Of a DNA stretch of 64,000 nt, positions 2,748 through 32,073 are shown in pieces. A model generated the notes under the pieces. It worked only from the letters and a program-made list of their open reading frames with translations. It was not told the origin of the DNA and did no database searches. The translations under genes and the position numbers were made by a program. Source of the DNA: Octopus sinensis (Eukaryota); assembly GCF_006345805.1 (NCBI RefSeq), contig NC_043001.1, positions 131,874,001 to 131,938,000 of the forward strand, in the 5' to 3' direction. Positions within the stretch are counted from its first letter, which is position 1; the number at the start of each line of letters is the position of its first letter.

Positions 2748-3260
2748 GTATTTATGAATGTATGTATATATACATAAATACATATATATATATATATATA
2801 TATATAAGAGATATAACATGCAGTAACCACACAACAGCATAGGAGCACTTAAACACAAGTTATGAGGCTTTTGCAAAAAATACACTAAACAAGTATATAT
2901 ATATGGATTCGGATCTCACAGGCAACCTTTCAGTATTTTCTGTGCAAGGGTGTTTTTTTAACCTGATATTCTATGGGCTGTTATTTATAGCTGCATCTGC
3001 TTCAAGTTTCGCCATTAAAAAAAATATATGCACACATACACACAAACACACTCACACATATATATGTATGTATACACATATATAAACAGATATATGTATT
3101 TATATTTATACACACACATATATATACATATATACATATATACACACATATATATGTGTGTGTGTGTATGTAGATATATATGTGTGTGTGTAAATATATA
3201 TATATGTGTATATATGTAAATATATATGTATATATATATATATATATATGTGTATATATA

Positions 3261-5689: not shown

Positions 5690-5905
5690 TAACGGGAAGC
5701 TTTATGAAAATAAACAAAAGACGAAGGCAGGTGGAAAACAAACGAACAATTGTATTAGTATGGCGCTCAGGAAATATAAATAAAACAAGTCTTTAACGTT
5801 TCGAGCCTACGCTCTTCAACAGAAAGATACACAGAGAGAGAAAAACACAGAAAGAAGGAGAGAAAAAAAAAAAAAAAATGCGTGCAGTAGCTAACGAATC
5901 AACAT
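5690..5905 (-). mobile_element. Short Penelope-type repeat carrying a minimal hammerhead
   Basis: Homologous to 18343-18537 and 31642-31773; ends in (TA)n. Confidence 0.7.
5790..5827 (-). ncRNA. Minimal type I hammerhead-like motif, variant core CUGUUGA
   Basis: UCUUU CUGUUGA A GAGC GUAG GCUC GAAA CG UU AAAGA: stem I UCUUU/AAAGA, stem II GAGC/GCUC, palindromic ACGU stem III, GUU triplet. Confidence 0.6.
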
Positions 5906-5994
5906 GGCGATGGGTAGTCATGATAAGTATATTAGGTATTGTATATTTTACCCCAGTGTCACTTTGATGGCATGCACTGCTCTCTCACTTCCTT

Positions 5995-6957
5995 TCTAAT
6001 AAAAGCACAAGGCCTGAAATTTTGGGGGAGGGGACTAGTTGATTACATTGACCCTAGTGTTTCACTGGTATTTAATTTATTGACCCTGAAATGATGAAGG
6101 AAAAAGTCGACCTCAGCAGAATTTGAACTCAGAACGTAAAGACAGATAAAGTACCATTAAGCGTTTTCCCAGCTCACCACCTTAATAATAATAATAATGT
6201 TAATAATAATAATAGTAGTAGTAGTAGTAGTAGTAGTAATAATCCTTCTACTATAGGCACAAGCCTGAAATTTTGGGGGAGGGGACTAGTTGATTACATT
6301 GACCCCAGTGTTTCACTGGTATTTAATTTATCGACCCTGAAATGATGAAGGAAAAAGTCGACCTCAGCAGAATTTGAACTCAGAACGTAAAGACAGATAA
6401 AGTACCATTAAGCGTTTTCCCAGCTCACCACCTTAATAATAATAATGTTAATAATAATAATAGTAGTAGTAGTAGTAGTAGTAGTAATAATCCTTTCTAC
6501 TATAGGCACAAGCCCTGAAATTTTGGGGGAGGGGACTAGTTGATTACATTGACCCCAGTGTTTCACTGGTATTTAATTTATCGACCCTGAAAGGATGAAG
6601 GAAAAAGTCGACCTCAGCAGAATTTGAACTCAGAACGTAAAGACAGATAAAGTACCATTAAGCGTTTTCCCAGCTCACCACCTTAATAATAATAATGTTA
6701 ATAATAATAATAGTAGTAGTAGTAGTAGTAGTAGTAGTAATAATCCTTTCTACTATAGGCACAAGCCCTGAAATTTGGTAGGCAGGGAACCAGTCGATTA
6801 GATTAACCCCAGTATGCAACTGGTACTTAATTTATCAACACTGAAAGGATGAAAGGCAAAGTTGACCTTGGTGGAATTTGAACTCAGGACTTAAAAATGG
6901 ACAAAATGCTGCTAAGCATTTTGCCCACCATGCTAATGATTCTGCCAGCTCACTGCT

Positions 6958-12509: not shown

Positions 12510-13157
12510 CTAAAGGGTATTCAGCTGCGGTTTATATTTTTAATGAGTAAGCTTTGCTTATTCGAACGGAGTTGTGTTGAAGAGTTTCCGGTGCATTCAT
12601 AGAGAGGGAAGATTTGGTATTTCGGGTTTATGTTTGTGGGGCATTGGTCTAGGTGTTTGCTTGCGGGAATTTTCCTGGTCCTAGGTTCACGGATCTGTTG
12701 CCTGTGTACCGTTAGTCAAGGTTAAACTAATTTGACCTATATAGTCTTCACCACACCCTCCACATTTGAGAACATAGATTAACTTCTTCGAAGCACAGGT
12801 GAAGTGCTTTTTTTATGGTGAAAGCTTCACCTGGCGTAAATGTGCATGTTGAGCCCTCTAAGAGAAAGTATGCAAATCCCGCAGTTAGGGAGATTGCACT
12901 TTTTGACGAATGGGGTTGTATTTTTGGTGGATAATTTCACACTGGTGAGCAACATTTTAGGGATTGCGGTTATCTCATGCTTTTAATAATCATACGTGTT
13001 TCCAGTGCTTTTTTCATTCGCAGGTCCTTGATAAGGAGGGGCATGTTTTGGTGGATAATGTATACTTCCATGCTCCACGGATTGTGTGTTCATACGTAAG
13101 ATAAAGTTTTAAGTGTGTCATGGTGTTTTCTTGTTTTCCGTAACTATTGGACGTGTA
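12510..13157 (-). pseudogene. Penelope-like element ORF remnant (linker and GIY-YIG endonuclease), disrupted
   Basis: Reverse translation across stops and frameshifts gives THNP...IIKSMR*PQSLK...KKCNLPNCGIC, then HFTCASKKLIYVLKCGGCGEDYIGQ...LTVHRQQIREP...SKHLDQC...YKPQLN. These are the typical Penelope CxxC and GIY-YIG motifs. Confidence 0.85.
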
Positions 13158-13306
13158 TCAAAAAATTTGCTTCACCACATACCGAAATTTAGAAATAGCA
13201 CTTAAAACTAGCTATTTCTCTACCATAAGTAAATCTCCCAGACAACAATACTCAACAACCCACGTAGGCAAAGAGAAAAGATAACGAATCCACCCGGCTT
13301 TGATTA

Positions 13307-13391
13307 ACTGTAGACGCGTTTCGGAGTTAGATAGATGTGAAAAATGTAAAAACCACATTTCCACTCTATCATTCTCACTCTTCAGTACAGT
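13307..13391 (-). ncRNA. Type I hammerhead ribozyme
   Basis: ACUGUA CUGAAGA G[long stem II hairpin]C GAAA CGCG UC UACAGU: 6-bp stem I, full core, palindromic ACGCGU stem III, GUC site. Confidence 0.85.
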
Positions 13392-13863
13392 ATTTCAAGA
13401 TTTTAAATTTGAGAGCGCTGTAAAAATTAAACATACCTTATCTGATCAAGCGTCATCAGACAACATACATCTAACAACCAGTACTTCCGAATTCAAACAG
13501 ACGAATGAGATCTTGTATTCTCCCTCACCTACCCACGTGTGCTACTGAGTAAAATTCTACTGAAAAAAACTGTAGTTTACTATCAGGGAGAGAATTATAT
13601 CATTATTAATAATAAAGGGTAAAATTAATTAATTAATTAATAATTAATAATTTTACCAAGTAGCTCGGTATGTTAAAAGAAACATTATCGATAAACTTAA
13701 TTTTTTAAATAATTATGAGTATAGTAATAATTAGGGTTCAGCAAAAAAATTTGCTTCACCACATACCGAAATTTAGAAATAGCAGTTAAAACTAGCTATT
13801 TCTCTACCATAAGAAAATCTACCAGACAATAATACTCAACAACCCGCGCAGGCAAAGGGAAAA

Positions 13864-13930
13864 ACTGTAGACGCGTTTCGGAGTTAGATGTGAAAAATGT
13901 AAAAACCACATTTTCACTCTTCAGTATAGT
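13864..13930 (-). ncRNA. Type I hammerhead ribozyme (shortened stem II, one stem I mismatch)
   Basis: ACUAUA CUGAAGA G...C GAAA CGCG UC UACAGU. Confidence 0.75.
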
Positions 13931-13959
13931 ATTTCAAAATTTTAAATCAGATAAGGTAT

Positions 13960-14372
13960 ACTCTTTTACTCTTTTACTTGTTTCAGTCATTTGACTGCGG
14001 CCATGCTGGAGCACCGCCTTTTAACCGAGCAACTCGACCCCGGGACTTATTCTTTTGTAAGCCCAGTACTTATTCTATCGGTCTCTTTTGCCGAACCGCT
14101 ATGTAACGGGGACATAAACACACCAGCATCGGTTGTCAAGCAATGCTAGGGGGTCAAACACAGATACACAAACGCACACACGCATATATATATATATATA
14201 CATATATACGACGGGCTTCTTTCAGTTTCCGTCTACCAAATCCACTCACGAGGCATTGGTCGGCCCGGGGCTATAGCAGAAGACACTTGCCCAAGATGCC
14301 ACGCAGTGGGACTGAACCCGGAACCATGTGGTTGGTTAGCAAGCTATTTACCACACAGCCACTCCTGCGCCT
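13960..14372 (-). mobile_element. tRNA-derived SINE family A inserted into the hammerhead repeat
   Basis: Full copy; splits host sequence TCAGATAAGGTAT|GTTTAATTTTTACAG. Confidence 0.9.
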
Positions 14373-14415
14373 ATGTTTAATTTTTACAGTGCTCTCAAAT
14401 TTAAAATCTTGAAAT

Positions 14416-14500
14416 ACTGTACTGAAGAGTAAGAATGATAGAGTGGAAATGTGGTTTTTACATTTTTCACATCTATCTAACTACGAAACGCGTCTACAGT
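14416..14500 (+). ncRNA. Type I hammerhead ribozyme
   Basis: ACUGUA CUGAAGA(14422-14428) G...C GAAA CGCG UC UACAGU; GUC at 14492-14494. Confidence 0.85.
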
Positions 14501-14794
14501 TAACCAAAGCCGGGTGGATTCGTAATTTTTTCTCTTTGCCTGCGTGGGTTGTGGAGTATTTACTCGGAGATTTACTTATGGTAGAGAAATTGCAAGTTTT
14601 AACTGCTATTTCTAGATTTCGGTATGTAATGAAGCAAATTTTTTGCTGAACTCTAATTATAATTATACTCATAATTATAAAAAGTTTTGTTTAAGTTTAC
14701 CGATAATGGTTCTTTTAACATACCAAACTACTTGGTAAAATTATTAATTATTAATTGATTAATTAATTTTACCTTTTATTATTATTGACACACA

Positions 14795-15518: not shown

Positions 15519-15760
15519 TTAGATGACTGCTCTCACGGAGCGCATCGCTATGCGCTCGTGAGAGCAGTCATCTAAAGGTTTTTGTGAATCTTGATGTTGA
15601 CATAAATTCTTGTTTTTCCTGATGAGAAAGCGGCATAATGTACGCCTTATTCCTTCACAATTAGGAATATGCAGCCTTCGAAACATATGTCGAAAATAAA
15701 GGAAATTTGTTAATTTGTCGTTCAACTCCATTCTTTCATTTATTCATAAATTTTATAAAT
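15519..15760 (+). mobile_element. (TA)n-embedded element with 5' fold-back and hammerhead
   Basis: 26-bp hairpin at 15519-15575, hammerhead at 15614-15696, TA arrays on both sides. Confidence 0.7.
15614..15696 (+). ncRNA. Type I hammerhead ribozyme
   Basis: UUUUC CUGAUGA GAAAGCGGCAUA...UAUGCAGCCUUC GAAA CAUAUG UC GAAAA; palindromic ACAUAUGU stem III; GUC at 15689-15691. Confidence 0.85.
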
Positions 15761-16208: not shown

Positions 16209-16435
16209 TAGTTATCGCCATACTAATATGGCATTCTTATAAAATAAGAAAAAAGCTGTCCGCTTATTAGCTCCATGAGGCCATCGCCTTAAGTTAGCTA
16301 ATAAGCTAATGGAGCGATAAGCGGACAGCTTTTCTATTTTATAAGAATGCCATATTAGTATGGCGATAACTATTATTTTCCGGAACGCTGCCGCTGTTCT
16401 CTTTTAGAGAGACTTAGTTATTTAATATTTCTATT
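16209..16435 (+). mobile_element. Fold-back element in (TA)n (second copy 31817-32073)
   Basis: ~65-bp inverted arms TAGTTATCGCCATACTAATATGGCATTCTTATAAAATA / TATTTTATAAGAATGCCATATTAGTATGGCGATAACTA plus a shared tail TTTAGAGAGACTTAGT. Confidence 0.75.
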
Positions 16436-18342: not shown

Positions 18343-18537
18343 GATAGATCGTTAGCTCCTACACGCATTTTTTTCTCTCCTTGTTTTTCTTCTGTGTATC
18401 TTTCTGTCGAAGAGCGTAGGCTCGAAACGTAAAAGACTTTTTCTACTTCTATTCCTGAGCGCTATACTAATACATTTGTTTATTTGTACTCCACCTGCCT
18501 TCGTCTTTTGTTTATTTACGTAAACTTTCCCTTTATA
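18343..18537 (+). mobile_element. Short Penelope-type repeat carrying a minimal hammerhead
   Basis: Homologous to 5690-5905; ends in a long (TA)n. Confidence 0.7.
18399..18436 (+). ncRNA. Minimal type I hammerhead-like motif, variant core CUGUCGA
   Basis: UCUUU CUGUCGA A GAGC GUAG GCUC GAAA CG UA AAAGA. Confidence 0.6.
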
Positions 18538-30605: not shown

Positions 30606-31038
30606 TTATATTCTTGAAATCACTTTCAGTTAAAAATATTTCTAATTGATTAAAATATTGCGTACGTCAAAAATTCGACGTTTTTGTTTTCTTAGAGCGC
30701 GCGAAAACTAAGTGTCTGTATATGTCACAAATATCTGATGTGTGTTTGTGTTGATTGACACCCCATGACAATATGTGTGTGTATTCTGTATGTGTGTTGA
30801 CGTCACGGAAGCTATGTTTTATTATGTCAAGAAATAACAAACAAAAGTTGTGTTTTTTCATTAATAAATGGAGGTCCAAATATCACAATTTTTTTTTACT
30901 TCACTGCCGATTGTAAGTATGTAAATAAATATGCAAATGAAAATGTAAAATATACTATTTCTGAGATATTTCGGGTACACACAAGCATCTTTATAGTTTT
31001 AATATTATTAATACACACACACACACACACACACACAC

Positions 31039-31084
<46 letters not shown>

Positions 31085-31620
31085 ATTGATAATTATTCCA
31101 AATTAATTAATTTCACCCTTCATTGTTACTGATAACCATATTCATCCCAGTAAATGACCACAGCACTTTGTCTTGGCTACACGCGGGTGGGAAGGGACTG
31201 GTGACACAAACTTTCATTCAAACTTTGAATTTGGTGATACTGGCTGTGGCTTCTAGCTCGCTCTGATACTGAGTTGAGTTGGTGCCTTCTAGTATCTCAA
31301 AATTCAATATACAATCATTCATGATTGTTCGTATCCTGCGCTGATGAGAGAAGAAGTATGGGTAAGGTAGAATTATCTAATTCTTATACTTTCCTAAGAC
31401 TTGATCTCGAAACGTACGTCCGTAGGTGACTTAAAACTGTATGATAGATTGCCGTTAATTCATTCTCTCTTACCTGTTTGTGTTTTGCCTTTCAAATGCT
31501 GTGTTTTTGCTGAGATCTCCCTTTTAGTAGAAGAAATAGCTATAATCTCTTTGACTGCTATTTCTAAATTCGGTGTGCGGTAAGGCAATTCGTTGCTAAA
31601 CCCTTAATTGCTTAGTATAA
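31085..31620 (+). mobile_element. Retrozyme-like monomer, diverged homologue of the 13158-14785 unit, between TA arrays
   Basis: Shares AATTAATTAATTT-ACCCTT, CACG(C/T)GGGT(G/A)GG and ACTGCTATTTCTA(A/G)ATT(T)CGGT blocks in the same order around a hammerhead. Confidence 0.7.
31335..31426 (+). ncRNA. Type I hammerhead ribozyme
   Basis: CCUGCG CUGAUGA GAGA[long hairpin]UCUC GAAA CGUACG UC CGUAGG: 6-bp stem I, palindromic ACGUACGU stem III, GUC at 31418-31420. Confidence 0.9.
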
Positions 31621-31645
31621 TATATATATATATATATATATGTCC

Positions 31646-31681
31646 CTTTCTGTAGAAGAGCGTAGGCTCGAAACGTAAAAG
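31646..31681 (+). ncRNA. Minimal type I hammerhead-like motif, variant core CUGUAGA (in repeat 31642-31773)
   Basis: CUUU CUGUAGA A GAGC GUAG GCUC GAAA CG UA AAAG. Confidence 0.55.
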
Positions 31682-31769
31682 ACTTTTTCAATTTCTGAGC
31701 GTTATACTAATACATCTGTTTGTTTTGTACACCACCTGTCTTCGTCTTTTGTTTTTTTCGTGAACTCTC

Positions 31770-31816
<47 letters not shown>

Positions 31817-31822
<6 letters not shown>

Positions 31823-32073
31823 TCGCCATACTATATGGCGTCTTATAAAATATAGACTAAAGCTGTCGCTGATTAGCTCCAAGAGGCCACCGCTTCAAGC
31901 TAGCTATTTGACACACAACCTGCGTCCATTATAAACCTTCTTGGAGCTAATAAGCGACAGCTTTAGTATTATATTTATAAGACTGCCATATAACTATGAC
32001 CATAACTATTAATTCAGTAACGCCGCGCCGTAATCTCCTTTAGAGAGACTTAGTAATTTTAAATTTCTATTAA
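31817..32073 (+). mobile_element. Fold-back element, second copy
   Basis: Arms ...CTAAAGCTGTCGCTGATTAGCTCCAAGA / TCTTGGAGCTAATAAGCGACAGCTTTAG...; same tail as 16209-16435. Confidence 0.75.

Follow-up and report, generated by a model that had tools for sequence, protein, structure and literature searches.

At positions 31085-31620 of the window, that is, of the whole stretch of 64,000 nucleotides of Octopus sinensis DNA analysed here, lies a hammerhead-bearing unit inserted in a microsatellite (Table 1), with no open reading frame (ORF) of 100 amino acids or more overlapping it. Its predicted ribozyme combines stem I (CCUGCG/CGUAGG, one of the six pairs being a G-U wobble), the core CUGAUGA, a 61-nt stem II insert, GAA, stem III ACGUACGU and C17. 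The features that the sequence-only reading had named are indeed present, but what it took for a unit of ~535 bp is a partial, circularly permuted monomer whose true period is ~587 nt and which is without the 53-nt stretch that elsewhere separates neighbouring units at constant length. A descriptor search of both strands found four type I hammerheads in the window, one in this unit, two in a relative at 13-14 kb and one at 15613-15697; the Rfam hammerhead models gave no match in the window or in 31200-31600 at E-values up to 10. Low-depth contigs cover the unit in three sequencing runs that are guessed, not recorded, to be RNA; they weigh neither for nor against transcription or circles.

Table 1. 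Position of the hammerhead-bearing units and their parts in the window.
Feature	Position	Strand	Remarks
Probable retrozyme copy of family A, 5'-truncated, ending at the main 3' terminus	31085-31620	+	536 nt of ~587-nt monomer
Type I hammerhead	31335-31426	+	predicted cut between 31420 and 31421
Stem II	31348-31408	+	4-bp base 31348-31351/31405-31408, 3x3 internal loop, long variable extension 31355-31401
Self-complementary stem III	31412-31419	+	2 bp in monomer, 8 bp across two copies
3' hairpin common to all lineages	31532-31565	+	9-bp stem, variable loop
Site matching the second ('tail') terminus of other copies	31110-31134	+	~295 nt past cut site
(CA)n(TA)n microsatellite, 5' side, target site	31013-31084	.	
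(TA)n, 3' side, target site	31617-31640	.	
Family B inverted arm, one full and one partial unit	13153-13947	-	hammerhead 13307-13391; decayed second one 13864-13930
Family B forward arm and tail, ending in (CA)n(TA)n	14372-14784	+	hammerhead 14416-14500
Long-stem hammerhead within a short palindromic (TA)n-flanked insertion; 3' end of PLE lineage H2	15613-15697	+	two differences from L220 over the insert

The relative at 13-14 kb, of family B, consists of two arms separated by a dispersed repeat (13948-14371), and its two hammerheads share stem I ACUGUA/UACAGU, the core CUGAAGA, a 56-nt insert and stem III ACGCGU. The proposal that this repeat and the 31-kb unit are diverged sisters is borne out by blastn (59% identity over 517 nt, E 7e-10) and by comparison with 300 dinucleotide shuffles, against which the shared flanks reach z-scores of 9.2 upstream and 10.8 downstream, and the whole unit 16.7. 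The stem I, stem III and N7 sequences quoted for both were also correct. The stem II hairpins, described as different, look unrelated when compared pairwise (z 0.5 for the inserts alone), but genomic intermediates connect them.

Other repeats occur nearby. The (TA)n tract directly past the unit holds an unrelated abundant repeat (31641-31772, +; also at 18400-18531, +, and 5708-5826, -), for which no coding parent was seen. Its hammerhead-like motif is minimal: stem II has 4 bp, stem III is ACGU and core position 6 is U. The window also contains a dispersed repeat in a 250-nt tandem array (5990-6895) and, at 31820-32030 and 16211-16380, a pair of short palindromic (TA)n-flanked copies of one element.

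The unit is a member of a superfamily whose 3' ends number at least 9,189 across the 2.72-Gb genome, counted with a 3'-hairpin pattern that is independent of the hammerhead (9,189 matches, none in the reversed control). Core patterns with an insert of 40-70 nt gave 1,132 matches (control 0) and 186 matches (control 5). Periods across the superfamily run from 545 to 645 nt, monomer GC from 0.30 to 0.38, and circular folds of the monomers have z-scores of -5.0 to -6.8. Family A, to which the 31-kb unit belongs (period ~587 nt), has 1,939 candidate places; the best copies among the 40 that were scored are 94-100% identical, and one (G000:C2:57089334-57089861) matches the window copy at 99.6% over 528 nt, so that the family is young. 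Family B (period ~586 nt) has 2,171 candidates at 83-93% identity. The 3'-hairpin pattern also led to family E (period 545-560 nt, stem II insert of 25-26 nt) and, through the locus L287, to family G (period ~643 nt, insert of 83 nt, 1,445 candidates). Tandem ORF-less arrays reach ~10 units at the locus L304 (G000:C1:18220172-18226135), where a family E copy lies head-to-head, inverted, against a ten-unit family A array at a single insertion site. Long-insert hammerhead-like motifs were also seen in other repeat families, at L137 (~2970-3060, -), L138 (3008-3107, -), L136 (~2990-3080, +), L199 (2837-2938, -), L232 (6-83, -) and L217 (4776-4833, +).

Conservation of the hammerhead fold

Covariation was examined in a hand-picked alignment of 34 natural copies from the long-stem lineages. 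Nineteen rows come from clusters formed without a pairing filter, the two window copies representing their clusters. Another 14 come from a list that required at least four of six pairs in stem I, and the remaining row is a copy that did not pass this requirement. The alignment excludes the short-stem lineages and seven clusters that were redundant or decayed, among them three whose stem I is broken. On a hand-drawn structure, 20 of the 26 pairs vary on both sides and 91% of the cells pair, a share that drops to 51% or less once the partners are slid. RNAalifold, unaided, recovers all of stem I, three stem II base pairs and part of the extension. Because kinship among copies inflates such counts, we used a tree-aware count, scoring by parsimony the double changes that fall on the same branch of a tree for which only flanking sequence (230 columns) was used. 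There are 11 of these in stem I against a permutation mean of 2.3, the true pairing being the only one of 720 to reach 11, and 6 in the 4-bp stem II base against a mean of 1.75 (1 of 24 pairings). The stem II extension has 10 against a mean of 6.5 (p 0.08), and the insert ranges from 25 to 83 nt among lineages; with such weak covariation and variable length, the long extension is not the conserved feature. What stays constant is a helix of 3-4 bp followed by a 3x3 internal loop, beyond which the extension is free in length. This internal loop occupies the loop-2 position in families A, B, D, E and G, and no partner in stem I was identified with which it would form a loop 1-loop 2 tertiary contact.

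The changes in stem I are readily seen in the forms it takes: CCUGCG/CGUAGG, CCUACG/CGUAGG, UCUACG/CGUAGA, CCUAUG/CAUAGG, CCCAUG/CAUGGG, UCCAUA/UAUGGA, CCUGUG/CACAGG, ACUGUG/CACAGU and ACUGUA/UACAGU, with CUGUG/CACAG and UUGCG/CGCAA in family G. The claim that structure rather than sequence is conserved thus stands for stem I, for the core and for the base of stem II; for the long extension, where support is weak, it does not clearly hold.

The unit has the core of a type I hammerhead (CUGANGA, GAAA and UH at the three-way junction) and its helices I, II and III, backed by covariation, with helix I open. Of 18 full units selected solely on the 3' hairpin, 17 have an intact core; by a strict expression applied to units chosen without regard to the core, so do 34 of the 39 units from family A and 8 of the 14 from the older family B. 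Among 17 representatives, 12 match the core expression, four are truncated before or inside the ribozyme, and L287 has an intact core with a longer insert; in the 12 core-matching ones, 69 of 412 flank columns are invariant. All 13 representatives in which the region is present (found without the core pattern) have an intact core, two of them, L287 and the young lineage E3, carrying U4C, a change that lowers activity in vitro yet is functional in a viroid (PMC3088659). Position 17 is always C, U or A.

Stem III takes the forms ACGUACGU, ACGCGCGU, ACGGCCGU, ACGUGCGU or ACGCGU, and ACGCGUGU in one copy. Its centre is TA, CG, GC or TG across lineages, and self-complementarity is retained though no pairing is possible within one copy. 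In the predicted folds, helix III has 2 bp (family A) or 1 bp (family B) in a monomer and 8 or 6 bp in a dimer, and the 8-nt stem III has an energy of +1.7 kcal/mol as a hairpin against -7.5 to -14.1 as two-copy duplexes. The non-complementary ACGCACGU (-3.1), which the search pattern permits, was absent among the loci examined; since that pattern biases the centre of stem III, the evidence from the palindrome is moderate. The self-complementary stem III of the A, B and E lineages suggests cleavage as a double hammerhead, and its energetics are consistent with the mode of that name described in PMC4209133. In family G, stem III is of odd length and able to fold alone. When the window hammerhead is isolated, its lowest-energy fold is a non-catalytic one, 3.2 kcal/mol below the active fold.

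A fold kept by paired mutations across many lineages makes it likely that the RNA cuts itself, and the importance of self-cleavage for propagation, already proposed by the sequence-only reading, is a reasonable inference from these patterns. The fold might instead serve a non-catalytic role, such as RT binding or RNA stability, or the paired changes might arise by template switching between inverted repeats, with a vestigial ribozyme. Naiad PLEs spread without canonical hammerheads (PMC8557442), the hammerheads of PLEs are weak cleavers in vitro (PMC4209133) and the activity-lowering U4C (PMC3088659) occurs in a lineage as young as E3, all of which would agree with such a role. However, the conserved residues are precisely the single-stranded catalytic ones, including the restricted position 17, and unpaired core residues would not survive by template switching, which makes a vestigial ribozyme very unlikely in our opinion.

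Insertion ends and templates

In families A and E, the 3' ends lie ~195 or ~295 nt past the predicted cut (188 and 307 nt in family G), and in 116 of 122 cases in A and E they are followed by (TA)n. Of 47 inverted pairs, 42 have one short arm and another with a tail of ~100 nt (~100-120 nt overall), one arm per terminus. Partial tandems, an inverted 5'-truncated arm, a one-sided tail and a microsatellite target together make up an insertion of the PLE type. A similar CCCU-containing motif stands 12-20 nt upstream of both 3' termini in families A, E, B and G (31110-31134 and 31595-31620 in the window) and a small hairpin follows the main terminus; these are possible enzyme recognition signals.

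Tandem arrays of homogeneous units are also what a DNA-level satellite, or a rolling-circle DNA element with an incidental old hammerhead, might produce. This we regard as extremely improbable: the short insertions are dispersed in their thousands, their 3' ends are fixed while 5' truncation varies, and they show inversions and a tail on one side only. These are marks of retrotransposition, and the end geometry largely refutes a DNA-level origin.

Units of the same array differ little, by 0.7% in family A (16 pairs), 0.4% in E (3 pairs) and 0.3% in E3 (2 pairs), against 2.5%, 3.0% and 1.7% between arrays, and nine units of L304 differ by 0.07%. Neither an excess of indels nor template-jump errors were found at the cut site in 160 copies spanning it. 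Both observations are consistent with a ligated monomer as template, although the low divergence within arrays could alternatively come from duplication at the DNA level.

The distribution of 5' ends bears on the form of this template. Among 146 5' junctions, after prior removal of two ruler artefacts and two twin arms, 12 ends fall within 14 nt past the predicted cut. The 14 nt before it contain 2 (p 0.006), and at greater distances past it the rate is 5.9 per 14 nt (p 0.03); the 14-nt window was picked after inspection of the data. Junctions with (TA)n scored by eye show 0-1 ends just before the site in family A, 8 just after it and 8 beyond (17 loci in the first 100 of 313 matches listed) and, genome-wide in family E, 9 before, 19 at +1 to +10 and 8 at +11 to +21 (36 in all). 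This excess at the predicted cut is suggestive of cleavage in vivo. Modest as it is, it would, if real, point to linear templates, in which case a partly cleaved multimer would be copied, the hammerhead would trim read-through transcripts and a circle would be unnecessary. Several copies that start at the cut site consist of one full unit plus ~195 nt, which accords with this, as do the family A junctions. Nevertheless, the window is post hoc, family G shows no excess (1 of 32 ends near the cut), a quarter of the family E ends lie just before the site and its pile at +6 to +8 overlies an ATA microhomology, and the homogeneity of L304 suggests a bottleneck of a single monomer. We therefore see a linear template as possible, if on the doubtful side.

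Penelope-like elements as possible partners

Autonomous Penelope-like elements (PLEs) co-occur in the genome, namely three young Hydra-type lineages with ORFs spanning 717-908 aa and a Neptune-like one. H1 encodes 717 aa, and its hammerhead combines a U4C core with a stem II insert of 31 nt; H2 encodes 778-908 aa, with inserts of 53-56 nt and stem III ACAUAUGU/ACACGUGU; H3 encodes 721-727 aa and has a short hammerhead. H1 is very young (L171 2464-4614, -; L172; L173), with 20,782 candidate places, intact ORFs and U4C fixed. The Neptune-like PLE (L350-L368) is also young, with 11,282 candidate places, ORFs of more than 800 aa, ends in (TA)n and a degenerate hammerhead-like motif in its 3' UTR. 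Since the Hydra ORFs went unrecognised in sequence searches of Pfam and PDB, their assignment is based on the motifs RWK/RxRW, DKT, CxCx5C in H1, CxxC and CxH, as given in PMC8557442, and on a by-eye match to the published Hydra-1_Obim excerpt.

The 31-kb unit has no ORF with RT and GIY-YIG endonuclease, as an autonomous PLE would, and no coding parent was found among the four PLE lineages sampled, H1, H2, H3 and one Neptune-like lineage. A profile of 26 monomers matched nothing in the terminal repeats of these lineages at E-values up to 1, save adjacent retrozyme copies, and pairwise comparison of retrozyme and PLE termini gave z-scores of 3.0 and 4.1 in two of 20 cases. A Naiad PLE with a missed hammerhead was also rejected, the 3' end being unlike the published excerpt of the cephalopod Naiad consensus in by-eye and motif searches. 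A covariance model scores the H2 hammerheads at 18-30 bits, a score for which the shared core could account. One chimera, L122 (3500-5010), joins 58 nt of retrozyme to a Hydra endonuclease fragment. An inverted end of H1 comes first, followed by the 58 nt of the retrozyme next to the chimera and then by the endonuclease and 3' end of H1; since L122 adjoins a retrozyme copy, it could possibly be local filler DNA. From target, end geometry, hammerhead form and this chimera, a Hydra-clade PLE is our best guess for the enzyme.

A closer bond to PLEs is conceivable, with the units as pLTRs or deletion products of an unsampled autonomous PLE lineage, amplified in cis and only later forming arrays. 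The long-stem hammerhead at 15613-15697 belongs to the 3' end of the coding Hydra lineage H2, the odd-length stem III of family G resembles that of published Hydra hammerheads, and, of 57 retrozyme families in Xenopus, 24 resemble known repeats, almost all of them PLE termini (10.64898/2026.07.22.740005). This origin is nonetheless unlikely in view of ORF-less arrays of up to ~10 units, the absence of a PLE ORF in register upstream of A, B, D, E and G units in the loci scanned, and the lack of homology to four coding lineages.

The explanation that we favour, and hold to be probable, is that the unit is a copy of a non-LTR retrozyme in which repeated paired substitutions have preserved the fold, likely because the RNA that a PLE enzyme would copy into (TA)n can only be made by self-cleavage. 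A tandem array would be transcribed, and adjacent hammerheads, pairing through the palindromic stem III as in the predicted dimer fold, would excise one monomer, which would likely be ligated into a circle; circles have been shown for mussel, coral and axolotl retrozymes (PMC7229834). An enzyme supplied by a PLE, with the Hydra clade as the most plausible source, would then prime at nicked (TA)n at the two observed 3' ends and copy round the template. The product would be the 5'-truncated, often inverted, head-to-tail array seen in the genome, with selection acting on source lineages and individual genomic copies decaying. In one study, eight of nine dimers of genomic Xenopus retrozymes remained uncleaved in vitro (10.64898/2026.07.22.740005).

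Beyond this non-LTR retrozyme, the family may tentatively be seen as an independent viroid-like RNA parasite of Hydra-clade enzymes, and not a PLE deletion product, with dimer-gated cutting, circles and recruitment in trans; we consider so strong a form rather unlikely. Were it true, the conserved 3' hairpin and the twin CCCU-bearing ends would recruit the enzyme in trans, the insertions would record a monomer bottleneck, cut-site 5' ends and the ~100-nt tail, long-stem hammerheads would be widespread and missed by Rfam and standard descriptors, and the family would offer a direct test of PLE hammerhead function.

Comparison with known systems

Non-LTR retrozymes have already been described (Cervera and de la Pena 2020, PMC7229834; Li, Clavereau and Pollet 2026, 10.64898/2026.07.22.740005). 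By their sequence the octopus units belong to this class, whose definition also includes circular RNA. Like the retrozymes of metazoans, they are non-coding tandems with one type I hammerhead each, GC under 45%, a weak palindromic helix III suiting dimers, a strongly self-paired monomer and PLEs in the same genome. Homology to pLTRs, which marks a PLE-derived subset and is not required for the class, was not found in H1, H2, H3 or the Neptune-like lineage. The monomers, of 545-645 nt, are longer than the 170-400 nt given in PMC7229834, and the range of the 2026 preprint (51-972 nt) includes them. The octopus superfamily differs from the retrozymes of these sources in three further respects: a 3x3 internal loop and an extension (insert of 25-83 nt) take the place of loop 2, the full PLE insertion geometry is present, and the sampled PLE lineages yielded no pLTR homology. 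In the literature we found no description of the superfamily or of its long stem II, and repeat libraries may list it among unknown or PLE families; the available text of a 2026 octopus repeat annotation (PMC13282606) does not mention ribozymes.

With Hydra-clade PLEs (Craig et al. 2021, PMC8557442) the units share the (TA)n target, partial tandem and inverted copies, a one-sided tail and a hammerhead near the 3' end, and H2 of this genome has a similar long stem II. They differ from them in having no ORF, no detectable flank homology and a longer tail (~100-120 nt versus 30-40 nt in PMC8557442). All Hydra hammerheads in File S2 of that paper have a short stem II, so that the long-stem H2 form is not in that list. 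The double-hammerhead logic of a palindromic helix III is shared with the newt and axolotl, schistosome satellite and PLE minimal hammerheads (PMC4209133, PMC7229834), whose helix II has 4-8 bp and a small loop, unlike the motif described here, to which no Rfam model responds.

What hammerheads do in Penelope-type retrotransposition is, according to PMC8557442, unclear, and animal retrozymes have so far been tied to PLE enzymes mostly by co-occurrence and pLTR similarity. To this the octopus superfamily adds evidence at two levels, evolutionary, with repeated same-branch compensatory changes, a retained core and a retained palindrome, and insertional, with PLE inversion and tail geometry on non-coding retrozymes. 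It also provides natural hammerheads that escape Rfam and in which loop 2 tolerates inserts of 25-83 nt and, being young and abundant, it makes cleavage, circles and the partner enzyme directly testable.
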